DNA from: an uncultured Chloroflexia bacterium
GTDB taxonomy: Bacteria > Chloroflexota > Anaerolineae > Anaerolineales > Anaerolineaceae
NCBI GenBank assembly: GCA_963704755.1
Contig: OY969938.1
Location: 2,100,001 to 2,132,000 of the forward strand
DNA length: 32,000 nucleotides
Direction of reading: 5' to 3'
Position numbers and translations under genes: made by a program. Position 1 is the stretch's first letter. The number at the start of each line of letters is the position of its first letter. The notes beneath the pieces were generated by a model. The model made no database searches. It was given only the letters and a program-made list of their open reading frames with translations, and had not been told where the DNA came from. This document shows, piece after piece, positions 408-30,130 of this stretch.

Positions 408-473
408 GCGCTGATACACCCCCACATATCCCCCGGCTTCGAAAGCCGGGCTACCCTACCCGGCACGCCCCCC

Positions 474-2882
474 TCATTCCCCCCGCCCAACGATCTCCAT
501 AAACGCCGCCACCACTTGCGGATCGAACAGCACCCCGGCATTGGCCTGGATGTATTGCAAAGCCTTCTCGCGCGGCCAGGCCGGCCGGAACGGCCGGTCG
601 GATTGGAGCGCGTCCCAAACATCCACCACCGCAAAGACCCGCGCGGCCAGCGGGATGCTCTCGCTCTGCAAGCCCAGCGGATAGCCCGACCCATCCCAGC
701 GCTCGTGGTGAAAATAGGGCACATCGAGCGCCCGGCGCAAAAACTGGATCGGCGCCAACATCTGCCGGGCAAAAATGGGGTGTTGTTTTACCAGCTCCCA
801 ATCCTTCTCATCCAACGGCTCAGGCTTGAACAGAATTTCATCCGGGATGGCCATCATACCGATATCGTGCAGCAGAGCCCCGCGGCGTAAATGGATCAGC
901 TCGGTATCGTTCATGCGCATCAGCCGGCCCAATTCCAGCGCCAGCTCGGTTGTCCGCTGGGTTTGCCCCTCGTTATCCTTGTTGTGCAGCTCGAGCGCTC
1001 GCGCCCAACCTTCCAGGGTCGCGTCATACGAGCGGATCAAATCGAAATTTGTGCGCTGTAAACTCTGGAACAGCCCGGCGCTGTCGATCGCGATCGCGGC
1101 CTGGCCGCCAAGTGTCTCCAGAAAGTCGGTCCAATCCGCCGTAGCCTCGAACTTTTCGCGTTTGAATACCTCCAATACGCCCTTTACTATTCCCTTTGAG
1201 ATCAACGGGACGGCATATCCCGTCCGAAAGCCCAGGGCCACCAGGAGGGCCAGCCGCGGGTTGTCTCGTCCAGCCGTCTGCAGATCGTCGATGGCGATCA
1301 ATTTTCGTTCCAAAACCGCCCGGCCGGCCAGCTTTTCATCCAGGCGAATGGCCTCACGATAAGCAGGCCCCAAATTGATTCCCCGGCTGGCAGAATAATC
1401 CAGGTGGAAGAAATTCGGGTCGATCAGCAGCACATCGGCAGCCGCTGGCCCAAGAAGAGAAATGACATAATTCAAAAATGCATCCAGGGTCACCTGCAAA
1501 TCGGTGCTGGACGAAATCATCTGGTCGATCTCACGCAGCGCTTTCAGGCGCTCCAAATGCTGCTGAACCTGCTGCTCGGTGCGTCTCCGGTCGGTAATAT
1601 CCCGCACGATCCCCTGGATGTACAACGGATCGCCTTTGAGGTCGCGGATCAAGGTGGCATTGATTTCCACCGGGACGTTGCTGCCATCTTTTTTGAGCAA
1701 TAACCGCTCGTACAACGGCACAGGTTCCGTAGCCAACAGACTCTCCCGTACCCGGATCGAATCGGGGTAATCGAAGGGCAGCACCACATCTTGCAAACTT
1801 CTTCCGATCAATTCCTCAACGGTGTAGCCCAGCAGATCAGCAGCTTTTTGATTTCCGGCAATAAAGACGTTCTCGAGGTCCATCAGGAAGATGGCATCGT
1901 TGGCGTTTTCGAACAGGCTGCGGTACAGGTGTTCGCGTTGATCGAGTTCCTGCTCGGCCAGGGTACGATCGGTCACATCTCGCACGGCAATGACCGTGGC
2001 CGGCCGGCCGCGGTAGGTCTGATTCCGGGAAATTGTCTCGATATAGAGCGAAGAGCCATCTTTACGCCGCACCGGCCGATCGCTGGGATGGCTGCCGTTG
2101 CCCAAAGTGATAACGTCCATATCGGACCGGGCGGCCGGCGGGAACAGGCTCATGACCGACTTTCCCAGTAATTCCGCCAGCTCGTAACCGAATAGCCTGG
2201 CAAAACCAGGATTAGCGTCCCGGATAATATCGCCGGAAAGAATGCAAACCCCTTCGTAACTGGTTTCCAGCAATGTGCGGTAACGTTCCTCGTTTTCGAT
2301 CAGCACTTGCCGGCGATGATCCTCTTGCTGGTTGCGATTGCGGACTACTACGACCGTCAGCACACCCGAGAGCAGCACAAAAAAGACCGGCCCAATGACC
2401 ACGTCAACGACGGGAAAATGAAAAAAGAAAACCGATGGGACAAATACGCCCAGAATAAACAAAACGGTCAGGAAAAGGATCGTCCGATCAGAAAAGAACA
2501 AGCTGGCAAACAGCAAAGGCAGGAACAGGTAATACAAAAAGCCCAGATCGACCGGCAGCCCGTAGGTGTAAAAGGTCATCACCAGAATGGAGAGGGCCAG
2601 GACCAGGATCGTTATCCAGGTCGATGAGATAAGGTACCCCCTGCGGTTGAGCAAGAAAGCCAACCCGAACAGCAAGACGGCCGTAACCACCATCCAATGG
2701 CCGCCATAGTCCGCGTAATAGTTTGTCAGGACAACATAGACTTCGAGAACCCCGCTGAGCGTGACCATCAAAATCTGCATGGTTGCCAGCAACCGTGATT
2801 GAAGCAATCTGTCGGGTCGATCGATCGGTACCGCTGGGGAAACCAACCAATCCCAGGCTTTATGCAGATTTCTATTTATCAT
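474..2882 (-). CDS. Multi-sensor signalling protein: N-terminal polytopic membrane domain, two PAS domains, GAF domain, C-terminal HD-GYP phosphodiesterase domain
   Basis: 802-aa ORF with an ATG start. The C-terminus carries HDIGMMAIP...HHERWDGSGYPLGL (HD and GYP signatures). The centre has PAS-like repeats (VRDVTDRTLAEQEL, VRDITDRRRTEQQ). About 6 hydrophobic helices lie in the first 190 aa. Confidence 0.85.
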   Translation of the reverse strand: MINRNLHKAWDWLVSPAVPIDRPDRLLQSRLLATMQILMVTLSGVLEVYVVLTNYYADYGGHWMVVTAVLLFGLAFLLNRRGYLISSTWITILVLALSILVMTFYTYGLPVDLGFLYYLFLPLLFASLFFSDRTILFLTVLFILGVFVPSVFFFHFPVVDVVIGPVFFVLLSGVLTVVVVRNRNQQEDHRRQVLIENEERYRTLLETSYEGVCILSGDIIRDANPGFARLFGYELAELLGKSVMSLFPPAARSDMDVITLGNGSHPSDRPVRRKDGSSLYIETISRNQTYRGRPATVIAVRDVTDRTLAEQELDQREHLYRSLFENANDAIFLMDLENVFIAGNQKAADLLGYTVEELIGRSLQDVVLPFDYPDSIRVRESLLATEPVPLYERLLLKKDGSNVPVEINATLIRDLKGDPLYIQGIVRDITDRRRTEQQVQQHLERLKALREIDQMISSSTDLQVTLDAFLNYVISLLGPAAADVLLIDPNFFHLDYSASRGINLGPAYREAIRLDEKLAGRAVLERKLIAIDDLQTAGRDNPRLALLVALGFRTGYAVPLISKGIVKGVLEVFKREKFEATADWTDFLETLGGQAAIAIDSAGLFQSLQRTNFDLIRSYDATLEGWARALELHNKDNEGQTQRTTELALELGRLMRMNDTELIHLRRGALLHDIGMMAIPDEILFKPEPLDEKDWELVKQHPIFARQMLAPIQFLRRALDVPYFHHERWDGSGYPLGLQSESIPLAARVFAVVDVWDALQSDRPFRPAWPREKALQYIQANAGVLFDPQVVAAFMEIVGRGE

Positions 2883-3020
2883 CGCTAAGAACCAGTAGAA
2901 ACCGCCCCCTTTATAGGGTCAATTTTATCCATTTTCAGACCCCTATTTTACCCCTGTTCTCCTGGCCTACCGGGCAGTTAATGGAAATGCAAACCTTTTG
3001 AATCGAAATTTAACGCTGCC

Positions 3021-4889
3021 TTACCTTGCAGAACTTTCCAGGGCATAAATATAAACCCCATCCCGCTGAAAAATATTCGTGACCCCCTGGCATGCTGAAA
3101 AACCTTCGGGCTGCATGCTGCCCGTCCCCTGGCGAAGATACAGATAACTGGCTCCACTTTCGTCCACCAGATTCCAGAAACCCGTATCACAGGTGGTCAA
3201 CGCGGTGGAGGTTTTCGCCCAATCGTTGATCTGCTCCACGGTAGCGCCCGGCCCCAGGGTGTACAATGCCGGCGGCAAGGTTGTTTTCCGGCCGGTCAGC
3301 GCCGGAATCCAGTAACCTCCATCCACGCCGCGGTAGGTTGTGCCCATCCAGACCGTGGTGTTGATCAAAAACACCGCGTCTGGCGGGGTATTTTCCTGCA
3401 GCCAATTCATGGCCTCCAGATCGGCTGCCTGCACCAGAACGGTGTCCCGGTTGATCACGTCGCGGGTGCTCCAGGCGCCCCAGAGCACGCTCCCCAGGGC
3501 CGCTAACAGGAGGACAGCCTGGCCGCCAACTTTCAGCCATGGACGCGCCAGCCGGGCGCACAGGTCCACTACCTCGAAGATCCCCGCTGAAAGCAGCAGC
3601 GCCGCCGGCAGGAACAGGATTATAGCCATATGATCCGGCCGGTAAGGCCCAATCCGCGGCCCCCAGGGCAAGGTCAGCAAGGCGATCAGTAAGCCCCAAA
3701 CGGCCAGCGCCCGTGACTTTCCTCGCCAGAGGGCCACCACCAGCCCAGCCGCCGCCAATCCCAGCAAAATAGCGTTGAAGCGCGGCCCTAACAGGTACAA
3801 AATGTACTGCCAGTAGGCCGACTGGTCGCCGGCTGCCGGGCTGACAAAGCCAACGTCGAAGCTGCCGCCTTGGGCCTGGAAAACCCGCACCAGCCAGGGC
3901 GTGGTCAAGGCTACTCCGGCCAACGCGACCAGCCCGGCCTGCCAGAGGCCATCCAAAGGCCGGATGCCCGGCTCGTTCCGCCGCCCAAACCAGGCCGTGA
4001 TCGCCCGCTCGGCCAGGAAAATAGCCGTGAACAGTCCCAGCAGGTACAGGGCGGTCAGGTGAGTCAACGCCACCCCGGCGGTTAGCAGACCCAGGTTGAG
4101 CATATGGTTAACTTTGCCGGGCTCGCGTACCGCCCGGATCAACGCGGCCATGGCCAGGGGCATCACCACCAGCCCGGCCGCCAGGGTGTAGCGCCCCCAG
4201 GAGACGTAATAGGCCGGCATCTGGCTGGCAAAGGCTACCAGCAGCGCCGCCAGGGCCGCCCGGCGCCAGTCCGGCCAGATTTCATGCGCCAGCCGGTACA
4301 CCGCAAGGGCTACCAGGCCGTTCAGAGCCTGGCCAAACCACAAAACGCTCTGCGCGGCCGGCAGCCCGGAAATCGCGGCAAACAGGGCCGTCACCAGGTG
4401 AAAGCCGTAGTGGTAGCCCAGCGGGGCCTGGATGACCGGCTCCAAAGTGGCGGGCACGCCGCCGTGGGCCAGGATCAACTGCACAATCAGGGTATGGTGG
4501 AGCGAATCCACCCAGGCGGGCAGCAGCAAGGTGTGAGCCTGGTACAAACGCCAGGCCACCACCGCGGCGATGCCTGCTAGGCCGGCCAAACCGGCCAGCC
4601 AGCCCCAGGGCCGGAAGCTCGGCCGGCGTCGCCACAGGCCAGCCAGCAAAGCCAGCAGGCAAAGCCCGTAGCCGATCTCCAGATGGATGGCCCGGAACTG
4701 CCAGCCTGCTAGAAAACCCAGCAAACCGATCAGAGTATATAGACTGATCGACAGCCCAACCGCATCCGCCAGGTTTTCCAGCCAGCTCTGGCGGTCGCCG
4801 AACCAGGCCAGCCAGGCCGCGCCCGGCAGGGCCAGGACCAGGATGCCGGCCAGGACCGCCCAGGCCAATGTATGTGCAGGGAATGTCAT
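3021..4889 (-). CDS. Large polytopic membrane protein with C-terminal extracytoplasmic domain (GT-C-like / uncharacterised integral membrane family)
   Basis: Long ORF with more than 12 hydrophobic segments, followed by a soluble approx 170-aa tail. The track start at 4973 is TTG and overlaps the upstream gene by 46 nt. I prefer the in-frame ATG at 4889 (MTFPAHTLAW...). Function is not identifiable from motifs alone. Confidence 0.55.
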   Translation of the reverse strand: MTFPAHTLAWAVLAGILVLALPGAAWLAWFGDRQSWLENLADAVGLSISLYTLIGLLGFLAGWQFRAIHLEIGYGLCLLALLAGLWRRRPSFRPWGWLAGLAGLAGIAAVVAWRLYQAHTLLLPAWVDSLHHTLIVQLILAHGGVPATLEPVIQAPLGYHYGFHLVTALFAAISGLPAAQSVLWFGQALNGLVALAVYRLAHEIWPDWRRAALAALLVAFASQMPAYYVSWGRYTLAAGLVVMPLAMAALIRAVREPGKVNHMLNLGLLTAGVALTHLTALYLLGLFTAIFLAERAITAWFGRRNEPGIRPLDGLWQAGLVALAGVALTTPWLVRVFQAQGGSFDVGFVSPAAGDQSAYWQYILYLLGPRFNAILLGLAAAGLVVALWRGKSRALAVWGLLIALLTLPWGPRIGPYRPDHMAIILFLPAALLLSAGIFEVVDLCARLARPWLKVGGQAVLLLAALGSVLWGAWSTRDVINRDTVLVQAADLEAMNWLQENTPPDAVFLINTTVWMGTTYRGVDGGYWIPALTGRKTTLPPALYTLGPGATVEQINDWAKTSTALTTCDTGFWNLVDESGASYLYLRQGTGSMQPEGFSACQGVTNIFQRDGVYIYALESSAR

Positions 4890-7678: not shown

Positions 7679-7854
7679 TTGGGGTGAGGGCCTCGCGCCG
7701 ATGTTACCAGCCCATAGGCTGATTGGCCGGCGCTCCGTGCCTCCTCCTAACCTCCCCCAAAATCCAAAAACCGGATTTTAGGGGAGGAATTGAGATTTTA
7801 AGGGGATCAGGCAACGAGGAAATGAGGAAAAATGCTCACATCCTCATTGACTTA

Positions 7855-7998
7855 TTGTCTCGTTGCCTCATTGCCTCATTGCCTCGTTGCCTCGTTGCCT
7901 CATTTCCTCATTTCCTCATTGCCTCATTGCCTCATTTCCTCGTTTCCTCGTTGCCTTGTTGCCTTGTTGCCTTGTTGCCTCATTTCCTCCTTCCCTTC
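7855..7998. repeat. 8-nt microsatellite array, about 18 units, consensus TTGCCTCR (variants TTTCCTCR, TTGCCTTG)
   Basis: I read the units directly at a strict 8-nt register from 7855 (ttgtctcg) to 7998 (ttcccttc). An inverted partial copy, ggcaacgaggaaatgagga, lies at 7810-7828. Confidence 0.9.
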
Positions 7999-13362: not shown

Positions 13363-13381
13363 TCGTTGCCTTTAGAAAAAA

Positions 13382-13403
13382 TGTAGAGTGGGTGCAGGGC
13401 TCA
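13382..13403. repeat. Solo copy of the MITE-like terminal repeat seen at 231-252
   Basis: tgtagagtgggtgcagggctca differs from 231-252 at one position. It is followed at 13449-13463 by gcccgtaacccacca, resembling the inner hairpin arm at 299-311. No matching right end was found. Confidence 0.5.
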
Positions 13404-13564
13404 TACGCAATACCGGTGCATCACCGGGCGGTAAAACAATCCGGGCCGTGCCCGTAACCCACCATCCTCGTTGGCCGGCGCTTCGCCCGCTAAGCTGGCT
13501 GGAAAACGATAAAAAAGCACATCCACCTTATGTCCACCTGCCGGTATCTGCCCTCATCCCCCGG

Positions 13565-13591: not shown

Positions 13592-13620
13592 AGCCTCTCT
13601 GCCGGAAGCCTAATCCCTCG

Positions 13621-13740
13621 TTGCCTCGTTGCCTCATTGCCTCATTGCCTCATTGCCTCATTGCCTCGTTGCCTCGTTTCCTCATTGCCACATTGCCTCG
13701 TTGCCTCGTTGCCTCATTGCCTCGTTGCCTCATTGCCTTA
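13621..13740. repeat. Second TTGCCTCR 8-nt microsatellite array, 15 units plus degenerate tail
   Basis: Strict 8-nt register from 13621, using the same unit family as 7855-7998. The tail tcccttctattccctcttc resembles the tail of array 1. An inverted partial copy, gaggggagaaggcaataaggcaa, lies at 13311-13333. Confidence 0.9.
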
Positions 13741-14496: not shown

Positions 14497-14754
14497 TGTC
14501 AGGTGTCATGTGTCAGGGTGTAACAGTGTTACGGTGTTTCAGTGTTTCGGTGTTGCAGTGTTTTGGTTTTATAGTGGTTCAGTGGTTCGGCGGTTTTGTG
14601 GTTCGGTTTATCAGTGCTTCTGGTGGCCCAATAGAAACGTTTTCTAAAGTCACTACCATTGCACAGCACCGTCCCGGCAGAAACACGGCCGCCCTGGCAC
14701 TGAATCACTGAAACACCGTAACACTGAAAAACCCTGTCCCCGACACCTGACACC
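14497..14754. repeat. Large imperfect inverted repeat (approx 57-nt arms) enclosing a second 8-nt repeat family (consensus approx YMGTGKTT)
   Basis: The left arm (14497-14553, tgtcaggtgtcatgtgtcagggtgtaacagtgttacggtgtttcagtgtttcggtg) matches the reverse complement of the right arm (14698-14754) at roughly 48 of 57 positions. Octamer phasing is visible from 14523 to about 14627. Confidence 0.8.
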
Positions 14755-14829: not shown

Positions 14830-15294
14830 ATGAGCCCTGCCCCACCTGCTGAAACCACCCTCCAGAAGGTGATTGAACAATTTCTGGATACGATCCCGCC
14901 GACCTGGAACCTGGTGCGCGGGCACCTGCACGCCACGGCCATGGAAAAATTCGAGGTAACCGAAGAACAGTGGCACATCCTGCGCCACATCCATAAAGGT
15001 GTCGATTCCGTCAGCGGACTGGCCCAGGTCAAGCGGATTACCCCTTCGGCGATCAGCCAATCCATCGACCTGCTGGTCGATAAAGGCCTGGTCGAGCGCA
15101 AACACAGCAACCAGGACCGCCGCTTCATCCAATTGAGCCTGACCCAGAACGGCAACGACCTGGTCAGCACCATTTACCAGGCCAATCGCGAATGGATGGA
15201 AGGAAAAATGGCCGCCCTGTCCCCCGAAGATATCGCTACATTGACCCGGGGTATGCAGCTCCTCAAACAGGTCTTTTTTTCTCCCGAAGGATAA
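14830..15294 (+). CDS. MarR-family transcriptional regulator
   Basis: 154 aa with a wHTH region: EQWHILRHIHKGVDSVSGLAQVKRITPSAISQSIDLLVDKGLVERKHSNQDRRFIQLSLTQNG. Confidence 0.85.
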   Translation: MSPAPPAETTLQKVIEQFLDTIPPTWNLVRGHLHATAMEKFEVTEEQWHILRHIHKGVDSVSGLAQVKRITPSAISQSIDLLVDKGLVERKHSNQDRRFIQLSLTQNGNDLVSTIYQANREWMEGKMAALSPEDIATLTRGMQLLKQVFFSPEG

Positions 15295-19030: not shown

Positions 19031-19152
19031 CCTCTTCGCCGGGAAACTGAGCCATGGCCATTCTAATTTTTTAATCGAGAAACGCTATACTTATACCGGC
19101 CTTGCAAATTCTGGCCGGCAAAGCCCGCAGACTCAGCCCAGGTGAAACGATC

Positions 19153-20328
19153 ATGACCGAAACCCAACCCACCCCGAAACGCGCTTCCCGTGCCTGGTTA
19201 TGGATCCTGCCGGTGTTGCTCTTCCTGTCCGTCTGGCTGCGCGTCATCTCTCTGCCGGCCACCAACGCGGACCTGCGCGCCTTTTTGCTGCCCTGGTATC
19301 ACTACATCGTCCGCGGCGGCGGGTTCCGTGCCCTGGGGGATTCCTTCTCCAACTACAACGCGCCTTACCTGTACCTGCTGTGGGTGGCCACGTTATTCAA
19401 ATCTATCCCGGCAGAGACCGCCATCAAGCTGATCTCGATCCTTTCCGACCTGGTCTCTGCTTACCTGGTCTTACAAATCCTGCGGCGGGTGACTCACTCG
19501 CCCAAAATCTACTGGCTGGGCTTTTTTTTGCTGCTAGTCGCACCGGTTGTGTGGATCGATTCGGCCTGCTGGGGCCAGTGCGACGGCATCTACACCGCCG
19601 CTTTGCTGGCCTGCCTGTTGGCTCTGCTGGACCAACGCCCTAACCTGGCCATGGTCTGGTTTGGCGTTGCGTTCAGTTTCAAGTTCCAGGCCATCTTTTT
19701 CGCCCCGCTGCTGCTGGTGCTGATCCTCCGGCGCAAGATCCCCTGGCGCGCAATCGGGCTGGTATTGCTGGTCTATTTGCTCATGGACCTGCCCGCCTTC
19801 ATCGCCGGACAGCCCTGGAGCAGCCTGCTGACCATCTATCTCAACCAGGCCGACCAGTACCACTTCCTGTCCATGAATGCGCCTAACTTTTACGCTTTCC
19901 TTTCCAATAACCTGTACGGCCTGTTGCAATGGCCAGCCATCTTGTTTGCCGGGCTAGTCCTGCTTGGGTTCGTCATCCTGGCCGCGCGCAGCAAAGCCGC
20001 CATCACCCCGCACTGGCTGATGGTAGGCGCCGCCTTCTACCTTTTTATGGCGCCTTTCCTGCTGCCCAAAATGCACGAGCGTTATTTTTACCCGGCGGCG
20101 GTCTTCCTCATCCCGCTCATGCTGGCCGATTTCAATTACATCCCGGCAGCCATCCTGCTGGAAATCAGTTCGGTCCTTTCCTATACCATCTTCCTTTTTC
20201 ACACGTCCTACACCAATCTCTTCATCGCCACCCTGGTCAACTTTATCCCCCTGATCTTCCTGACCTGGGCCTATGTCCGCGAGCTGTACCCGCCTAAAAG
20301 AAGAGAATTCCAGGTTCAAGCGCCATAA
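19153..20328 (+). CDS. GT-C-fold membrane mannosyltransferase-like protein (Gpi18/PIG-V-like or GT87-like)
   Basis: About 11 TM segments with an early loop LPWYHYIVRGGGFRALGDSFSNYNAPYLYLL and WGQCDGIYTAALL. I chose the ATG at 19153 (MTETQPTPKR) over the track start at 19102. The family assignment comes from recalled motifs only. Confidence 0.55.
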   Translation: MTETQPTPKRASRAWLWILPVLLFLSVWLRVISLPATNADLRAFLLPWYHYIVRGGGFRALGDSFSNYNAPYLYLLWVATLFKSIPAETAIKLISILSDLVSAYLVLQILRRVTHSPKIYWLGFFLLLVAPVVWIDSACWGQCDGIYTAALLACLLALLDQRPNLAMVWFGVAFSFKFQAIFFAPLLLVLILRRKIPWRAIGLVLLVYLLMDLPAFIAGQPWSSLLTIYLNQADQYHFLSMNAPNFYAFLSNNLYGLLQWPAILFAGLVLLGFVILAARSKAAITPHWLMVGAAFYLFMAPFLLPKMHERYFYPAAVFLIPLMLADFNYIPAAILLEISSVLSYTIFLFHTSYTNLFIATLVNFIPLIFLTWAYVRELYPPKRREFQVQAP

Positions 20329-20362
20329 CATCCTCGCTAAAGGGGATGTCATTGAGAAAGCA

Positions 20363-22086
20363 GTATCGTAGCCCGGTATCGTAGCCCGGCTTTCAAAGCC
20401 GGGGGGGGCGAGCGCCGGCGTAGGTCGGGTTTCGGGCTAATAACCCGTTTCCGCGGTCGAGGATATCGTTTTGTTCACCTACCCGTTGCCCGCAACCCGA
20501 CGTCGCAACGCGTATTTTCCAAACTGCCGGTTAGATAGGCGCACGGGCGATGCGGCCGGAACCATTACCCATTGACAAATCCAAACATACCGACCGGCTG
20601 CATCGCCCCTACAACCGACCAGATCAAAACGCGGGTCCCGACCGAAAAAATACACCCCGCGCCTTTCCCCACTTCCCCCGGCGAGCATAACTTAACGCCT
20701 TCCCCCTCCGCGAAGCGTGGTGAAGGCCGGGATGAGGGTAGATACCGGCCAAACCGAAGGACTCTTATGTAGGGTGCGTTGGCAACGCACCACTGAGCCT
20801 GGCGAAAGCAAACAATGGGTAGCCATACCCGTTTGGCTGCAATTCCTCTCCAACCCGCAATCCAATATCACCAAGCGTTTTGGTGCGTTAGCAACGCACC
20901 CTACATGCTGTACCCGCCTAAAGCCAGAGAAAACCTGCTGGCGGAGTGAAGTAGCCCGGTATCGTAGCCCGGCTTTCAAAGTAGCCCGGCTTTCAAAGCC
21001 GGGGGGGGCCGAGCGCCGGCGTAGGTCGGGTTTCGGGTAAATAACCCGTCTCCGCGGTCGAGGTTATCGTTTTGTCCACCTACCCGTTGCCCGAAACCCG
21101 ACGTCGCAACGGGTATTTTCCAAACCGCCGGTTAGATAAGCGCCCGGGCGATGCGGCCGGAACTATTACCCATTGACAAATCCAAACATACCGACCGGCT
21201 GCATCACCCCTACAACCGACCAGATCAAAACGCGGATCCCGACCAAAAAAAAACACCCCGCGCCTTTCCCCACTTCCCCGGCGAGCAGAACTTAACGCCT
21301 TCCCCCTCCGCGAAGCGTGGTGCAGGCCGGGATGAGGGTCAACGCCGGCCAAACCGAAGGACTTTATGTAGGGTGCGTTGGCAACGCACCACTGAGCCTG
21401 GCGAAAGCAAACAATGGGTAGCCATACCCGTTGGCCGCAATTCCTCTCCAACCCGCAATCCAATATCACCAAGCGTTTTGGTGCGTTGCCAACGCACCCT
21501 ACATGCTGTACCCGCCTAAAGCCAGAGAAAACCTGCTGGCGGAGTGAAGTAGCCCGGTATCGTAGCCCGGCTTTCAAAGCCGGGGGGGCCGAGCGCCGGC
21601 GTAGGTCGGGTTTCGGGCAAATAACCCGTCTCCGCGGTCGAAGTTATCGTTTTGTCCACCTACCCGTTGCCCGCAACCCGACGTCGCAACGCGTATTTTC
21701 CAAACTGCCGGTTAGATAAGCGCACGGGCGATGCGGCCGGAACTATTACCCATTGACAAATCCAAACATACCGACCGGCTGCATCGCCCCTACAACCGAC
21801 CAGATCAAAACGCGGGTCCCGACCAAAAAAAACACCCCGCGCCTTTCCCCACTTCCCCGGCGAGCAGAACTTAACGCCTTCCCCCTCCGCGAAGCGTAGT
21901 GCAGGCCGGGATGAGGGTCAACGCCGGCCAAACCGAAGGACTCTTATGTAGGGTGCGTTGGCAACGCACCACTGAGCCTGGCGAAAGCAAACAATGGGTA
22001 GCCATACCCGTTTGGCCGCAATTCCTCTCCAACCCGCAATCCAATATCACCAAGCGTTTTGGTGCGTTAGCAACGCACCCTACATG
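20363..22086. repeat. Triple head-to-tail tandem repeat of a non-coding approx 540-555-nt module joined by two 43-nt linkers
   Basis: Copies lie at 20363-20907, 20951-21505 and 21549-22086. The linker ctgtacccgcctaaagccagagaaaacctgctggcggagtgaa occurs only between copies (20908-20950, 21506-21548). By-eye alignment gives roughly 14-16 differences per pair. Copy 2 has a 17-nt internal duplication (gtagcccggctttcaaa). Confidence 0.95.
20768..20905. repeat. 138-nt TIR sub-element inside tandem copy 1 (equivalents at 21367-21503 and 21947-22084)
   Basis: tgtagggtgcgttggcaacgcacc (20768-20791) versus ggtgcgttagcaacgcaccctaca (20882-20905). Each end is itself a hairpin (ggtgcgt/acgcacc). In copy 2 the two ends are perfect 24-nt reverse complements. 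Confidence 0.8.
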
Positions 22087-22264
22087 AAAACATATTCCGG
22101 GCTTCGGAACCAGGGTGTAAAATAAAGAGCCTTTATTACCCAAACGAATTTCTTACCCCGAGTAATAACGCGCATTGACGAATCTTTCCTAGGAAAAATT
22201 ATTGCGATGAAGCCAATCAACAACTCAGGCAGGTTGCGCTGGTTCAACACCGCAGCTTTTTCTG

Positions 22265-24109
22265 GTGATCGCCCTGGGAGCCGCGGCTGCCCTGGTGGGG
22301 CTGCTGCGACTGCCTTCTGAAAATGTCCGCGCCGCCTGGCTGGGGTATTCCAGCTCGCGCCTGGCGGTGGCAGCGCTCACCGGCCTGCTCGTGCTCGTGT
22401 TTGCATTTTGCACCCTGGCCGAAGGAGCCCAGCTTCCCTTCTGGATAAAGCTCTCTGCCAAAGCCCGCGCGGTCTTCTCCCGCCAGGGCAATATCTACTG
22501 GCTGGCCGTTCCCGGCCTGACCATCCTGCTGGTAGACACCCTGCTGCTGGTCGCCGCCCTCTCGCCCCTGGCCCAGGCTGAGCCGCTGCTGGCTTCCTTG
22601 CTACAGCGGATGGGTCTGCTATGGGCCTGGATCGACCTGGCCGTTCTACTGCTGGGCTGGATGGCCTTGCGCAATTTCAAACCCTCCGGCCCCGAGCCGG
22701 TCTTTACCCCCCTGCGTTGGGCGCTGCTGGCCCTGGTCATTTCACTGACCTTCGGCGTGCTGATCCACGCTTTCAACCTGCTGGCCGGCTCCAACCGTTT
22801 CCGCCAGCTGGAATATTACCTGCAAGCCCCGGCCCTGATCGGCCTGGCCCTGGCTTTGCTGCAGCGCTATTTCAGCGGGCGGGCCTGGTATGGGTGGGTT
22901 AGCAAAACCCTCAGCCTGGCCCTGGTCGCGGCCGCTGCGGTGGTTCTGTTCGTCGCCACCGCCAAATTGGTGGGCTGGTACGGCACGCCGGCCAAGGTGT
23001 ACTGGAACCTGCTGGCGGACGCCTTTTTGAAAGGCCGCCTGTACCTGGTCGACCCGCCCACCACCCACGACCTGACCCTCTACAACGGCAACTGGTACGT
23101 GCCTAACCCGCCTCTGCCGGCCCTGGCCGTGCTGCCCCTGGTCGCCGTGCTCGGCGTGCAGGGGGTCAACATGGTCTGGTTCTCCATCCTTATTGCCGCG
23201 GCCATTGTGGCCCTGGTATTCTGGATCCTGCAGGATGCTTCCGCACAAGGTCTGATCCCCACCGGCCTGCGCTCCAACCTGTGGCTGACGGTGATGTTCG
23301 CCCTGGGCACCGACTACTGGTGGCTGTCTTTCCTGGGGCAGATGTGGTTCCTCAGCCAGCTTTTGACCTTGCTTTGTGCGGCCCTGGCCGTGCTGTTTGT
23401 GATCAAAAAAGCCTCGCCCTGGTGGGCCGGCCTGTGGCTGGGACTGGCGCTGCTTTCCCGCCCGAACATCTTCACCCTCTGGCCGCTGCTGGCCGGGTTA
23501 TACCTCTACCTCGATCATCGGGGACATCCCACCTTCGATTGGAAGCGGGCTCTCGGCTGGGCAATTCAGTCCGCCGTCCCGGTTGTGTTAGCTGCCGCCA
23601 TCCTGCTGGTGTATAACTACGTCCGTTTTGGCAATTTCATGGATTTCGGCTACACCACCATCAACGGCGCGGCCGAAATTGTGACCAACGTGCAGACCTA
23701 CGGCATCTTCAACATCCACTTTGTGCCCATCAACCTGAAAGTGATGTTCCTCGACTTTCCTCGATTCGCGCTCGAAAACGGCTGCCACGTCTTGAATACC
23801 GACGGGTTCAGCATGCTGGTGATGACGCCGGCCCTGCTGTACGTCTTCCGCCGCTTCCGCTGGAACGCCTGGACGATCGGAGCCTGGATTTCGATCATCC
23901 TCTCCATCGGCCTGCTGGCCTTCTACCACAACACCGGCTCGGCCCAGGTTGGTTTTCGCTACCTAATGGATTTCATCCTGCCCGTGCTGCTGCTGATGGG
24001 CATTGGGCTGGGCAAAAAGCCGGAGTGGCCCTTCAAAGCCCTGGTCCTGCTCGGCATCGCCGGCAACTTCGTGGGGATCCTGCTCTGGTTCCGGCTGCTT
24101 TGTTATTGA
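22265..24109 (+). CDS. GT-C-fold membrane glycosyltransferase (ArnT/PMT, GT39-like) with long N-terminal membrane extension
   Basis: 614 aa, with more than 14 TM segments. Central loop: DAFLKGRLYLVDPPTTHDLTLYNGNWYVPNPPLPALAVLPL. GTG start at 22265, so the start is uncertain. The 3' end overlaps the convergent cytochrome c gene by 7 nt. Confidence 0.55.
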   Translation: MIALGAAAALVGLLRLPSENVRAAWLGYSSSRLAVAALTGLLVLVFAFCTLAEGAQLPFWIKLSAKARAVFSRQGNIYWLAVPGLTILLVDTLLLVAALSPLAQAEPLLASLLQRMGLLWAWIDLAVLLLGWMALRNFKPSGPEPVFTPLRWALLALVISLTFGVLIHAFNLLAGSNRFRQLEYYLQAPALIGLALALLQRYFSGRAWYGWVSKTLSLALVAAAAVVLFVATAKLVGWYGTPAKVYWNLLADAFLKGRLYLVDPPTTHDLTLYNGNWYVPNPPLPALAVLPLVAVLGVQGVNMVWFSILIAAAIVALVFWILQDASAQGLIPTGLRSNLWLTVMFALGTDYWWLSFLGQMWFLSQLLTLLCAALAVLFVIKKASPWWAGLWLGLALLSRPNIFTLWPLLAGLYLYLDHRGHPTFDWKRALGWAIQSAVPVVLAAAILLVYNYVRFGNFMDFGYTTINGAAEIVTNVQTYGIFNIHFVPINLKVMFLDFPRFALENGCHVLNTDGFSMLVMTPALLYVFRRFRWNAWTIGAWISIILSIGLLAFYHNTGSAQVGFRYLMDFILPVLLLMGIGLGKKPEWPFKALVLLGIAGNFVGILLWFRLLCY

Positions 24110-27165: not shown

Positions 27166-27885
27166 TTACACCGCCGGGGTAAACTCGCCGACTTTCAGAT
27201 AAACCACCTGGGGCAGCGTACCTAATTCTTCCAACAGCTTGAACTGGCGCTGGTCTTCACCAATCACCTGAGCGACCTTGCTGTTGGCGTCGTTCATGTC
27301 GCCGAAGATCAGCGCGCTGGTCGGGCAGGACTGCACGCAAGCCGGTACGACGTCGCCGTCTTGCAAGTCGCGCCCCTCTACCAGGGCCTCTTCTTCGGAG
27401 CGGCGGATGCGCTGGACGCAGAAGGTGCATTTTTCCATCACGCCGGCCGTGCGGACGGTTACATCCGGGTTCAATTGCTCGGTCAGCAGGCCCTCGAACT
27501 GCGGGTCGCGGAAATTGAAGAAACGTACTTTATAAGGATCATTATTCTGGCAGTAGCGCGTGCCCACACAGCGGTTGTAGACCTGTACATTCAAATTCTC
27601 GCGTTCGCTGTGCATGGTCGCGTACACCGGGCAGACCGGCTCGCAGGGCGCATTTTCGCACTGCTGGCACATCACCGGCATGTAGCGTTCCTTGATGTTG
27701 GGGTACTCCCCTTCCCAATAGCGCTCTATGCGGATCCAGTGCATGGCCCGGCCACGCACGACTTCGGCCTCATCTACAATCGGGACATTATTCTCGGCAT
27801 GGCAGGCTACCACACAGGCGTTACAGCCGGTGCAAGCGTCCAGGTTGACTACCATAGACCATTTATGTTCAGGAAGGTCGGCCAT
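27166..27885 (-). CDS. actB2: Alternative Complex III ActB2, 4Fe-4S ferredoxin-type subunit (separate polypeptide)
   Basis: Cys clusters CTGCNACVVAC, CQQCENAPCEPVCP, CVGTRYC, CTFC and CVQSCP are typical of PsrB/NrfC/ActB2. Confidence 0.85.
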   Translation of the reverse strand: MADLPEHKWSMVVNLDACTGCNACVVACHAENNVPIVDEAEVVRGRAMHWIRIERYWEGEYPNIKERYMPVMCQQCENAPCEPVCPVYATMHSERENLNVQVYNRCVGTRYCQNNDPYKVRFFNFRDPQFEGLLTEQLNPDVTVRTAGVMEKCTFCVQRIRRSEEEALVEGRDLQDGDVVPACVQSCPTSALIFGDMNDANSKVAQVIGEDQRQFKLLEELGTLPQVVYLKVGEFTPAV

Positions 27886-27907
27886 ATCTACTGATAATCC
27901 TTTCAGG

Positions 27908-30130
27908 CTATTCGCCCGGGAAGCCCTTGTTGAGGAAACCCGTCTCTACGCCCTCGGTATATTCAAAGGTCGCCATGTGCATCTTGCGCCCGGTAGGCGT
28001 TACCTGCACGCGGATATTTCCCAAAGGCAGCTCAACGCTGCCCGAACCGCTTTGCGGGGCCGCCAGTTGCACGGCATTGACGCCCCGCCGGCTGGCATAA
28101 CGGCCAAAGTCCGTGTGGCCCTGGCCCAACGGCATCGCCACGGTATCCGGCCGGATCGCCGGGTACAGGTAGGCCGCCGCTTCGATCTCGCCCGCGGGCG
28201 AGGTAATCTTCAAAATATCGCCTTGCTGGACGCCCATTTTCCCGGCCGTGGTGGGGTTGATCTCCACCCAGGTCTGCCATGAAATAGAAGTGTTGACGTC
28301 CGGAGAACCTTGCAGCCAGGGTTGGTTTGCTCCCCGGCCATCGCTCAATAACTCTGAAAGATAGAGGTGTAAATAATAGGGATAAGTCTGGGCATCGCCC
28401 TGGTAATTGTACTGGCTGCCGCCGGTGGGGAAGGTCACCGTGGCCGGTGGATGATTGCTGGCCGCTGCCCCGGCGGATTGAGGCCACCAGCCGCCCTTCT
28501 GCAAGAAGCTGGCCCAAACGGCGCCGGGCGTCGTTCCATAGGTCGAATCGATCGGCAGCCCGCCGATCTGCTCCTTGAGGAACTCCACCTCGTCCTTCCA
28601 GGTCAGCACACTGGCCGCCGCGGGGATTTCCTTGGCGGCGTCCAGGATCACGTCCCCGGCCGAGCGAATATCATAGACCGGCATGACCACCGGCTGCTGG
28701 CTGCTCAAAGAGGGCGTGCCGAAATCCGGTGAAGTCACGTCGTAGCCCCACGATTCCAGGTAAGTGCGGTCCGGCAGGATCAGGTCGGCCTGGACGGCCG
28801 TTTCGTCGATGACCGGCGCGAACGAAACCACAAACGGCACGTTCTTGAGCGCATCCAGGAAGCCGGCTTGCTGGGGCAGGTCGTAGGCCGGGTTGGCTCC
28901 GTAGATCACCAACACCTTTACCTGGCCGCTGGACATGCGCTGGATCAGCTTTTGGGCGTCTGCGTAAGTGGATACGGCCGGTTTTTGCAAGGCCGGCTGC
29001 TGCAAGCCGGCCGAACCAACCAGGGCAGACGAGCGCGTATCCGCGCCTGAAACCACGTTGAGCGCCTGCACGGCCGTGATCACCTCGGCCGCATTCGGCT
29101 GGTTGGCCAACAACTCGCCGGGAATGGCCAGGGCCTTTTGGGCGCTGCCGAAAATGCGCGCCAGGTCCTGGATCTCAGCGGCCTGCAAGTCGCATTCCTG
29201 AGCCGCCTGCTGCAAATCTACCGAAAGGTCCATCGCGCGAGCGCGGGTGACCACGTCATTCGAGCCCACCCCCAACCCGGCGATCTGCGAAATGATGGCC
29301 TTGGCCAGGGTCAGCTCGCTGCCCGGTTTGGCCGGTACCCAGCGGTCGGCTTTGGATCCGATCGAGGACATGCGTGGCTCGATCTGCACCAGAAAACCGC
29401 GTTTGCCTAACGGCTGGCTGCGGAATTTGCCAAACTCGATCCCGTAACGCACCCCGGAATGCCAGGCGCCGGTAAAATTGGCCCCGAAAGAAAAAATTAC
29501 GTCCTCGTCGCCCAACTGGTACGCCGGAAGCTGAGGCGTACTATACAGGGCCTGGTCAGCCAATCCGTAATTGGCATACCCGTTGAACAGGGTATACAGG
29601 TCGTAGACCAGTGGCGCAGGCGCGCCGATCGCCGTCGTCAGCCGCGAAAACAGGTCATAGACGTGGCCGGAAACGGTAGAGCCCGCCCAAACGGCCACAT
29701 CCGGGCCGGCCGCCTGGAGTTTATCGGCCAGCATCTTGACCCCGTCGTCCCAACTGACGTCGGTATAGGTCTTCGAGCCGCGGGAAGTCTGCTGCTGGGG
29801 TCCTTGCAGGCGGTCCGGGTTATATAACAGTTGCAGCCCAGACTGGCCACGCGCGCACAATTTGCCCTGGTTGAGCGGATGCTGCGGGTTGCCTTCGATC
29901 TTAACCGCCCGCCCGTTCATGATCCGCACAATAATGCCGCATCCGGCCGGGCATTGGCGGCAGGTGCTGGCGTACCAGGTTGCTTTACCGGCTACCTGCT
30001 CTTCTGGCGGCACGACATAGGGCTCCAATACCTCCCACCGCCGTGGCCATTTACAGCCGGTCAGGACGGCCGAGCCGGTCCCAATCATTGCGATGCGCAA
30101 GAATTTGCGTCGGGAAATTTTTATAGTCAC
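27908..30130 (-). CDS. actB1: Alternative Complex III ActB1, molybdopterin-oxidoreductase-like subunit with Tat signal
   Basis: The twin-arginine signal SRRKFLRIAMIGTGSAVLTGC is followed by CRQCPAGCG...KLCARG (N-terminal FeS motif of the complex iron-sulfur molybdoenzyme (CISM) family). 740 aa, GTG start. Confidence 0.85.
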   Translation of the reverse strand: MTIKISRRKFLRIAMIGTGSAVLTGCKWPRRWEVLEPYVVPPEEQVAGKATWYASTCRQCPAGCGIIVRIMNGRAVKIEGNPQHPLNQGKLCARGQSGLQLLYNPDRLQGPQQQTSRGSKTYTDVSWDDGVKMLADKLQAAGPDVAVWAGSTVSGHVYDLFSRLTTAIGAPAPLVYDLYTLFNGYANYGLADQALYSTPQLPAYQLGDEDVIFSFGANFTGAWHSGVRYGIEFGKFRSQPLGKRGFLVQIEPRMSSIGSKADRWVPAKPGSELTLAKAIISQIAGLGVGSNDVVTRARAMDLSVDLQQAAQECDLQAAEIQDLARIFGSAQKALAIPGELLANQPNAAEVITAVQALNVVSGADTRSSALVGSAGLQQPALQKPAVSTYADAQKLIQRMSSGQVKVLVIYGANPAYDLPQQAGFLDALKNVPFVVSFAPVIDETAVQADLILPDRTYLESWGYDVTSPDFGTPSLSSQQPVVMPVYDIRSAGDVILDAAKEIPAAASVLTWKDEVEFLKEQIGGLPIDSTYGTTPGAVWASFLQKGGWWPQSAGAAASNHPPATVTFPTGGSQYNYQGDAQTYPYYLHLYLSELLSDGRGANQPWLQGSPDVNTSISWQTWVEINPTTAGKMGVQQGDILKITSPAGEIEAAAYLYPAIRPDTVAMPLGQGHTDFGRYASRRGVNAVQLAAPQSGSGSVELPLGNIRVQVTPTGRKMHMATFEYTEGVETGFLNKGFPGE

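Follow-up and report, generated by a model that had tools for sequence, protein, structure and literature searches.

A probable tandem REPIN cluster of unusual unit length between two membrane protein genes

The 1.7-kb stretch of DNA that lies between a GT87-type glycosyltransferase gene and the gene for a polytopic membrane protein is a real but ordinary feature. The most probable reading is a BIME-like stretch without coding function, in which REP hairpins of the RAYT type run up to a terminal REPIN and the whole has been amplified head-to-tail to three copies. It would be a REPIN cluster repeated in tandem whose unit is unusually long. REPs are short palindromes handled by RAYT transposases, and the criterion applied to them here was a palindrome of about 20-40 nt capable of forming a stem-loop. 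The REP/REPIN-RAYT system has been little studied in the phylum Chloroflexota, and the array, which also accounts for an otherwise puzzling gap of 1.9 kb in a probable operon, offers a clean example of it there.

Within the window, by which we mean the whole 32-kb stretch of DNA that was analysed, the array occupies 1.72 kb (20363-22086) and consists of three head-to-tail copies of a unit of ~581-601 nt, with start-to-start spacings between consecutive copies of 601 and 580 nt. The modules lie on the plus strand at 20363..20906 (copy 1, 544 nt), 20951..21504 (copy 2, 554 nt) and 21549..22085 (copy 3, 537 nt), and the G at 22086 that follows the third module is the same as the first base of the linkers between them. 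An earlier sequence-only reading had proposed three tandem copies here, about 97% identical by eye, and this is borne out when substitutions alone are counted: identity is 95.1% between copies 1 and 2 (26 mismatches), 96.8% between copies 1 and 3 (17 mismatches) and 97.8% between copies 2 and 3 (12 mismatches), far above chance in each case. Copy 2 carries an additional internal duplication of 17-18 nt (GTAGCCCGGCTTTCAAA), seen as an extra 17-nt micro-duplication at 20964-20998, and the array region as a whole holds micro-duplications of 13 nt and 17 nt. The 1-nt indels that the same reading had described among the copies are likewise present in the sequence, and four of the five that distinguish the copies fall in homopolymer runs; because of this location, and because the downstream gene carries a +1 frameshift, part of them may be sequencing errors. 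The GC content of the array (58-59%) is equal to that of the window.

Each module is a mosaic of hairpins of four sequence types, all of which carry GTAG, the guide tetranucleotide of RAYTs (REP-associated tyrosine transposases), at the foot of the stem, and GTAG abuts the stem directly in REP-A, in both REP-B arms and in two longer inverted repeats. A GTAG at the hairpin foot is needed for binding and cleavage by TnpA-REP (PMC3479197). REP-A (GTAGCCCGGCTTTCAAAGCCGGG) and REP-B (GTAGGGTGCGTTGNNAACGCACC) are each 23 nt long and are composed of GTAG, a perfect 8-bp stem and a 3-nt loop. REP-A occurs on the plus strand at 20381..20403, 20981-21003 and 21562-21584, folds as single-stranded DNA at -9.4 kcal/mol (z -4.7), and is preceded each time by a truncated form of itself (GTAGCCCGG; 20368, 20951 and 21549). 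A further REP-A with 1 mismatch is found 20 kb away on the minus strand (window 432-454), within another REP-like cluster; REP-B, within the 32-kb window, is confined to the array.

The first of the two longer GTAG-footed inverted repeats (GTAG plus GTCGGGTTTCGGGCAA, 46 nt, TTGCCCGCAACCCGAC) is found on the plus strand at 20420-20501, 21021-21102 and 21601..21682 (single-stranded DNA fold, z -3.3), and the second (GTAG plus GGGCGATGCAGCCGG, 34 nt, CCGGCCGCATCGCCC) on the minus strand at 20545-20612, 21146-21213 and 21726..21793 (z -3.4). Neither has a match in the databases searched, and both are assigned to the REPs from their architecture. The 3' element of each unit is a REPIN doublet, in which two inverted REPs across a short spacer form one long hairpin. 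These doublets measure ~140 nt, with 39-nt arms that are 79-85% complementary, a spacer of 61-62 nt and single-stranded DNA z values of -5.5 to -8.5. The doublet of copy 1 (20767..20906; -34.4 kcal/mol, z -5.5) is made of two inverted REP-B with 39-nt arms and a 62-nt spacer, and its outer foot is the unit boundary; that of copy 2 (21366..21504; -42.4 kcal/mol, z -8.5) has a perfect 26-bp outer stem, and that of copy 3 (21946..22085; -34.6 kcal/mol, z -5.7) forms the terminus of the array.

The association of REP-B with RAYT genes is seen in other genomes. More than 115 stretches carrying REP-B are present in GTDB representative genomes, many per genome and mostly in Anaerolineae/Chloroflexota and cyanobacteria; 114 of the 134 matches lie outside ORFs of at least 200 aa, and their flanks are without conservation. 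In three Chloroflexota (mostly Anaerolineae) MAGs, REP-B directly adjoins RAYT genes that were called with NCBIfam NF047646 at 187-198 bits (cut-off 80): on both sides and in inverted orientation at L074 (gene at 2811-3365), downstream only at L098 (1261-1809), and on both sides in the same orientation at L107 (6688-7236). RAYTs of group 4 are frequent among Cyanobacteria and Caldilineae (PMC5581495). No RAYT gene is encoded within the 32-kb window, and when an Anaerolinea RAYT with the identical REP was used as query, none of the best 120 of 7,944 homologues fell on the 4.87-Mb source contig. The GTAG at four hairpin feet, together with the REP-B copies that adjoin RAYT genes in the three MAGs, favours the second candidate put forward by the sequence-only reading, a BIME-like cluster of REPs amplified as a block.

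The remainder of the unit is without relatives in the collections searched. In a blastn comparison of the whole unit with 119 fetched loci, the REP-B region was the sole match and REP-A was absent, and the ~330-nt centre of the module matched nothing in 185,579 representative genomes, JGI metagenomes, plasmids and phages. A 25-mer taken from this centre gave 0 matches in genome contigs, and blastn against plasmids and phages likewise found nothing; a single 22-mer match, on an AT-rich metagenome contig, was judged to be chance.

Two co-directional genes flank the array. The upstream gene (19150..20328, plus strand; likely start ATG 19150, with the mechanical ORF running from 19102) encodes a GT87/DUF2029-like polytopic membrane glycosyltransferase, whose score against Pfam PF09594 (22.4 bits) is under the 25-bit cut-off and whose homologues carry PF09594 and are named 'Gpi18-like mannosyltransferase'. 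The downstream gene (22207..24109, plus strand) encodes a polytopic membrane protein of 614 aa with no match to any Pfam or NCBIfam family, and of the two membrane glycosyltransferase neighbours once proposed only the upstream one can be recognised as such. The conserved N-terminus of the downstream protein (ATG 22207, MKPINNSGRLRWFNT) and the main ORF at 22265-24109 lie in reading frames that differ by +1, which amounts to a +1 frameshift relative to the orthologue. In the closest relatives (L001 and L002) only ~95 nt separate the two genes, and the array, which these nearest relatives lack, is for this reason lineage-specific. In a pairwise alignment, homology with L001 ends at 20299 and picks up again at 22108, and the sequence at 22108..22206 (plus strand), homologous to the ~95-nt spacer of L001, is ancestral intergenic sequence. 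The downstream gene retains its own ~100-nt upstream region, and a promoter scan placed a promoter-like TTGACG-16-AATTAT upstream of this gene at 22175-22202.

The modules are joined by two 44-nt linkers of the same sequence, on the plus strand at 20907..20950 and 21505..21548. That the linkers are identical to each other had been recognised before; the accompanying claim that they are absent from the outer flanks does not hold, as their first 16 nt reproduce sequence from the end of the upstream gene. A segment of this gene (20283..20307, plus strand) recurs at the start of each linker (alignment; blastn E=0.004), with identity at 16 of 16 nt (GCTGTACCCGCCTAAA) and at 22 of 25 nt over a longer stretch, and the match keeps the reading frame (LYPPK.RE). 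The linker is a diverged relic of the final codons of the GT87 gene (LYPPKARENLLAE and stop). The repeat unit starts 46 nt before the stop codon of the GT87-type gene and ends exactly at the outer REPIN foot, and because it starts inside the gene end, every downstream unit opens with a relic of the last codons. The interval 20300..20362 (plus strand) takes in the C-terminal tail that the upstream gene now has, with the stop codon at 20326-20328, followed by a unique spacer of 34 nt; neither the linker nor the relative L001 has sequence homologous to this interval. In alignments addressing the ancestral gene tail, the 21 nt after the array (22087-22107) and the linker were both compared with L001, and their similarity to it is too weak to mark either as that tail. 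A 14-nt match of the linker within the downstream gene (23006-23019; E=0.057) was judged to be chance.

Under the favoured reading of a REP block amplified in tandem, REP elements would have gathered downstream of the GT87 gene via RAYT-mediated single-strand transposition, and two rounds of duplication would then have affected a ~0.6-kb block, whether through slippage during replication, a switch of template or unequal recombination between sister strands. Duplication was probably favoured by the 140-nt REPIN hairpin, and micro-duplications of 13 nt and 17 nt occur in the same region. The copies would afterwards have diverged by 2-5%, and the promoter-proximal gene tail would subsequently have been replaced. 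Several observations count against this account, among them the lack of a RAYT in the window and among the best 120 homologues on the source contig, and the lack of matches for the two longer inverted repeats and the centre. Simple duplication leaves the first gene tail, strongly unlike the two identical relics, unexplained; the unit junction shares 1 nt (G) of microhomology and does not appear to fit the C^T cleavage rule of E. coli TnpA-REP; and, at 0.58-0.60 kb, the unit exceeds those of described REPIN clusters several-fold.

An alternative is that the ~0.6-kb unit is a non-autonomous mobile or integrative element, whether a 'super-REPIN' or a small element whose target is the GT87 3' end, which was inserted three times in tandem with a surrogate gene tail. 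Such an element would agree with the 16-nt gene-end sequence that opens every unit and with the relic that stays in frame, with the exact coincidence of unit end and REPIN foot, with the lack of the whole block in relatives, and with a first tail unlike the other two, as if the units had entered separately. It is nevertheless unlikely, since the 16-nt core is missing at the right end of the array, the module has neither terminal inverted repeats nor a target-site duplication, integrase, transposase and RAYT are all absent from the 32 kb, the central sequence is unmatched in the 185,579 representative genomes, JGI metagenomes, plasmids and phages, and homologues at the level of ORFs are lacking. 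A more specific form, in which a hitherto undescribed composite element moves with the help of a single-strand transposase (a RAYT or some other), inserts at GT87-type 3' ends with a replacement C-terminal tail and builds arrays via repeated strand transfer at the REPIN foot, must be considered quite unlikely. Related element classes were rejected separately: a MITE or IS-derived element for want of terminal inverted repeats and target-site duplication, the left (GTAGCCCGGTATC) and right (CCCTACAT) ends of the module having GTAG alone in common and the flanks (GAAAGCA to the left, GAAAACA to the right) not being duplicated; and a site-specific integrative element at the gene 3' end, the 16-nt core standing left of each unit and missing after the last, with no recombinase in the window. 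Only if the whole unit proves mobile would the array pose a new biological question.

The sequence-only reading had taken the array to be non-coding, and this is supported by the 2-9 stop codons in every frame of every copy, by the lack of any Pfam match for the ORFs of the array, and by the lack of a homologue for its 165-aa ORF among 5.8 billion proteins. The view that it is neither rRNA, tRNA nor CRISPR-like was also upheld: a tRNA search of the array found none, no Rfam family reached its gathering score, and nothing CRISPR-like was seen. The same reading had entertained a structured RNA, and it could be argued that each module is the gene for one, as on both strands the units form more stable folds than shuffled sequences do (z -5.1 and -4.5). 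Most of the extra stability is contributed by the REPIN and REP hairpins, however, which fold as DNA too, and the best Rfam matches below threshold, at E<=1, are generic hairpins (mir-981, 26 bits against 51; Acido-Lenti-1, 19 against 37). A promoter scan found no sigma-70-like promoter within the array, the differences between copies repair some pairs and break others, and the lack of homologues beyond this locus means that no covariation can be demonstrated, all of which makes an RNA gene very unlikely. A nucleoid-organising site, offered alongside it, found no support.

Searches for type I toxins use tandem duplication within intergenic DNA as a criterion, and such toxins are further recognised by a conserved ORF of <70 aa with a transmembrane segment and a polar or bulky C-terminus, plus an antisense RNA (PMC2887945). 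The array could accordingly be read as a tandem type I toxin-antitoxin locus resembling LDR of E. coli, in which three ~0.5-kb repeats each encode a 35-aa toxin and an antisense RNA, and a minus-strand ORF of 35 aa with a hydrophobic core can indeed be found in copies 1 and 2 (20565-20672 and 21166-21273), with its C-terminal 27 aa also present in copy 3. This reading is highly improbable, as each of the four nucleotides at which the ORF differs between copies 1 and 2 changes the encoded amino acid, copy 3 is frameshifted, and the GTG start stands right against a G-rich run that leaves no Shine-Dalgarno spacing. The ORF is moreover without a charged C-terminus or a Pfam match, a search of 1.84 billion representatives matched it to a single protein, an unrelated one made of low-complexity repeats, and promoter-like sites are absent from the array. 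It is no easier to believe that one module was mis-assembled into three, for although homopolymer indel errors are possible, as the +1 frameshift of the downstream gene and the four in five 1-nt indels in homopolymer runs indicate, the copies differ by 12-26 substitutions, by a 17-nt duplication and by the tail before copy 1, assemblers collapse repeats and do not create diverged copies, and the source contig is of chromosome scale (4.87 Mb).

The array probably serves no function of its own. As with other REP/BIME clusters, a likely side effect would be that of a hairpin-rich intercistronic segment of RNA and DNA that shields the 3' end of the upstream mRNA and loosens transcriptional coupling to the downstream gene. 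The array suggests that REP-rich spacers in Chloroflexota can amplify as blocks of ~0.6 kb, and that the terminal part of an adjacent gene can be caught up in such an event and preserved as a fossil. For annotation, the ORFs of 60-165 aa in the gap should not be called genes, and the array is a likely hotspot of copy-number variation and mis-assembly.

Among known systems, LDR of E. coli resembles the array in having three tandem intergenic repeats of ~0.5 kb that are non-coding in appearance, with a 35-aa hydrophobic ORF that can be drawn in two copies here; the array differs in that this ORF, which carries a frameshift in copy 3, bears no sign of purifying selection and has neither homologues nor sequence similarity to LDR, and in that promoters and antisense RNA are not evident. 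Like the BIMEs (bacterial interspersed mosaic elements) of E. coli, the array is a mosaic of REP-type palindromes in both orientations between co-directional genes (PMC3479197), and it shares the 5' GTAG at the hairpin foot with E. coli REP/TnpA-REP and amplification as a block with BIME-2. The REP sequences are other than those of E. coli, however, the alternation of Y and Z PUs and the named linkers are lacking, the repeat period is ~6-fold longer, and the pattern of the CT cleavage dinucleotide is not apparent at the junction. Within the Chloroflexota, the genome of an uncultured Chloroflexia MAG (L094, CAWGZV010000002) contains a 12 x 49-nt array of REP-B, in which the same REP core (GTAGGGTGCGTTG..AACGCACC) has been tandemly amplified; its 49-nt unit is composed of one REP and one GC hairpin, with all REPs direct, and it lacks the REPIN, long flank and gene relic of the present array.

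The closest likeness is to Pseudomonas fluorescens SBW25, where tandemly repeated clusters of REPINs that include flanking sequence are the commonest higher-order arrangement of REPINs (PMC3116915). Together with the 12 x 49-nt array of the same REP in a Chloroflexota MAG, this shows that the rarity ascribed to the array by the sequence-only reading was overstated. Near-identical REPINs with their flanks stand head-to-tail in extragenic space in both cases, each unit consists of a flank, a REPIN and a short second flank, and the REP is of a RAYT-associated type; the array is, by this definition, a tandem REPIN cluster. It differs in its Chloroflexota-like host, in a REP sequence unrelated to Pseudomonas REPs, and in a flank that holds three more types of GTAG-footed hairpin and the relic of the 3' end of a neighbouring gene. 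The largest cluster of SBW25 comprises four REPINs in just over 700 bp (Bertels & Rainey 2011, PMC3116915), and described units are about 100-200 nt long, whereas the unit here measures ~0.58-0.60 kb and the array 1.72 kb, outside the described range; this excess is a variant in size of the same architecture.

Between the GT87/DUF2029-like membrane glycosyltransferase gene (19150-20328) and the gene for a 614-aa polytopic membrane protein with no assigned family, a module of ~0.55 kb occurs three times head-to-tail. As the sequence-only reading described, these tandem copies are present (20363-20906, 20951-21504, and 21549-22085; start-to-start distances of 601 and 580 nt), forming a repeat far beyond chance expectation. 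They are separated by two 44-nt linkers of the same sequence (20907-20950 and 21505-21548), and the array shares the GC content of the window (58-59%). Counting substitutions only, identity is 95.1% between copies 1 and 2, 96.8% between copies 1 and 3, and 97.8% between copies 2 and 3. Micro-duplications account for an extra 17 nt in copy 2 and for 13 nt at the start of copy 1.

Each module is composed of successive hairpins, described here in the coordinates of copy 3. A truncated GTAGCCCGG at 21549 precedes REP-A (GTAGCCCGGCTTTCAAAGCCGGG, 21562-21584), which has a 3-nt loop on an 8-bp stem footed by GTAG, and is followed by an inverted repeat at 21601-21682 (GTAG|GTCGGGTTTCGGGCAA, 46 nt, TTGCCCGCAACCCGAC) and a second, on the minus strand, at 21726-21793 (GTAG|GGGCGATGCAGCCGG, 34 nt, CCGGCCGCATCGCCC). 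A weakly pairing stretch of ~150 nt then leads to two inverted copies of REP-B (GTAGGGTGCGTTGGCAACGCACC), which form a doublet of 140 nt (21946-22085); REP-B has the same GTAG foot, stem length and loop length as REP-A. Folded as single-stranded DNA, the doublet reaches -34 to -42 kcal/mol (z -5.5 to -8.5). The stem foot is exactly GTAG in all four of the different hairpin types of the module, and GTAG is a conserved feature of REPs that the E. coli REP-associated tyrosine transposase (RAYT) needs for binding and cleavage (PMC3479197).

A scan of one genome per species found REP-B in more than 115 stretches, a lower bound, often with dozens per genome. Among the matches listed, these belong mostly to Anaerolineae/Chloroflexota MAGs and to cyanobacteria such as Prochloron, and 114 of the 134 matches listed fall outside ORFs of at least 200 aa; comparison of their flanks revealed no conservation past the 23 nt. 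In three Chloroflexota MAGs (two Anaerolinea and one unclassified Chloroflexi), REP-B stands directly beside genes of 182-184 aa that NCBIfam NF047646 ('REP-associated tyrosine transposase', cut-off 80 bits) matches at 187-198 bits; in the protein collection the RAYT family numbers no fewer than 7,944 clusters at E<=1e-20. The gene and its adjoining GTAGGGTGCGTTG..AACGCACC REP occupy 2757-3403 of locus L074, 1261-1895 of L098, and 6658-7347 of L107, and in L074 two REP-B copies flank the RAYT gene on both sides in the canonical inverted arrangement. The distribution matches the published observation that Cyanobacteria and Caldilineae often carry Group 4 RAYTs (PMC5581495). Because of this dispersal, extragenic bias, RAYT adjacency and taxonomic range, REP-B appears to be a true REP of the RAYT type, and its doublet of 140 nt would by its architecture be a REPIN.

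REP-A has a second site in the window, 20 kb from the array (432-454, minus strand, 1 mismatch). Positions 1-470 hold another cluster of GTAG-footed palindromes, comprising GTAGGGTGCGTTT...AAACGCACC at 16-108, a 190-nt palindromic element (TGTAGGGTGGGTGCAGGGCTCA...) at 228-411, and this REP-A copy at 430-464; half a copy of the 228-311 arm recurs at 13379-13467. The window also has an 8-nt unit (CCTCATTG/CCTCGTTG) repeated in tandem in two intergenic arrays located 5.7 kb apart, at 7842-7989 (18.5 copies) and 13616-13738 (15.4 copies), with a partly complementary stretch at 7784-7830. Four copies of 16/24-nt repeats (GGTGTTACAGTGTTTC; 14514-14736) lie just upstream of a MarR-family gene (14830-15294) and may be operator-like; 145 nt downstream of them is an inverted partner of 39 nt that is 87% complementary.

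The setting is ordinary chromosome, in which two ABC exporter genes, the GT87 gene, the array and the membrane-protein gene are followed, on the opposite strand, by an alternative complex III operon. Its ActB-like subunit is split (27166-30130, minus strand) into molybdopterin-like (27908-30130) and 4Fe-4S (27166-27885) ORFs 22 nt apart, which could be natural or another frameshift. The nearest available relatives, metagenome contigs L001 and L002, encode a GT87 protein 76% identical and carry the same gene pair with a spacer of only ~95 nt. In pairwise alignment with L001, homology ends at 20299, ten codons upstream of the window gene's stop, and restarts at 22108, the base directly after the L001 stop codon; thus ~1.8 kb is lineage-specific and includes, besides the array, a new C-terminus for the GT87 protein and another 21 nt. 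The downstream gene keeps its native 100 nt upstream, with one promoter-like match. Its conserved N-terminus (MKPINNSGRLRWFNT, ATG 22207; 22207-22270) is encoded, judged by L001, in a frame shifted by +1 from that of the 614-aa ORF. The shift is either genuine or due to a sequencing error in a homopolymer; in its place the L001/L002 orthologue has an in-frame TGA.

The linkers had been thought absent from the outer flanks, which is wrong on the left, where 20283-20298 of the upstream gene is identical to linker nucleotides 1-16. Read in the gene frame, the linker gives LYPPKARENLLAE-stop, against LYPPKRREFQVQAP-stop in the gene itself, and the repeat unit therefore consists of the last codons of a GT87 gene, the REP mosaic and the REPIN, units being joined precisely where the REPIN has its outer foot. 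Past the shared 16-25 nt the relics do not differ from one another and are very unlike the live gene tail, so a replacement of either that tail or the relic must have come after the first duplication and before the second. The repetition of this gene-end core and the absence of the block from relatives would also suit a mobile or integrative element; this is improbable, however, as the core is missing at the array's right end, there are neither TIRs nor TSDs, no transposase, RAYT, integrase or other recombinase is found within the 32-kb window, and searches of 185,579 representative genomes, JGI metagenomes, plasmids and phages gave no true match to the module centre.

The non-coding status proposed from sequence was borne out: each frame of each copy contains 2-9 stop codons, and the longest ORFs (66-165 aa, Arg/Gly/Pro-rich) differ between copies and have no Pfam match, the 165-aa ORF lacking a homologue among 5.8 billion proteins. 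No tRNA was found in the array and no Rfam family reached its gathering score, matches at E<=1 being generic long hairpins. An array of non-coding RNA genes, for which generic fold stability is the sole argument, is very improbable. So is an LDR-like type I toxin-antitoxin (criteria of PMC2887945), since the 35-aa hydrophobic minus-strand ORF of copies 1 and 2 that would encode the toxin has no family or true homologue, differs non-synonymously at four of four positions, and is frameshifted in copy 3. An assembly artefact is unlikely, the copies being too diverged for assembler invention; four of the five 1-nt indels among them do fall in homopolymer runs, in keeping with the earlier remark on indels, and homopolymer errors are probable.

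For the REP-derived array, the structures, unit boundaries, lineage-specific presence and local micro-duplications observed here suggest that RAYT-type single-strand transposition piled up REP elements downstream of the gene. Two rounds of duplication of a ~0.6-kb block would have followed, through replication slippage, template switching or unequal recombination; the long REPIN hairpin that ends the block plausibly favoured them, and the copies would have diverged by 2-5% afterwards. The junction gives no support to strand transfer made there directly by a RAYT, as microhomology is only 1 nt and agreement with the C^T rule for cleavage in E. coli is not evident. In E. coli, REP/BIME clusters shield the 3' end of the mRNA upstream of them and make the downstream gene less tightly coupled; by analogy, this hairpin-rich intercistronic segment is predicted to do the same.

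Three tandem ~801-nt units (94% identical), each with the REP, internal 126-nt repeats and ORFs of 95-141 aa, occur in Prochloron sp. OZ240666 (L108, 814-3272) and look as if a gene had been duplicated in tandem together with a REP. A Chloroflexia MAG (CAWGZV010000002; L094, 3902-4492) carries a 12-copy tandem array of 49-nt period, whose unit has the same REP GTAGGGTGCGTTGCAAACGCACC and a CCCCGCGGCGGGG hairpin. The tandemly repeated REPIN clusters of P. fluorescens SBW25, the largest just over 700 bp (PMC3116915), have the same architecture as the present array, which, given also the 12 x 49-nt array, is therefore classed as a size variant of this already known kind. Compared with the SBW25 clusters, its unit is longer by a factor of 3-6, a REP mosaic and a gene relic make up its flank, and the host belongs to another phylum.
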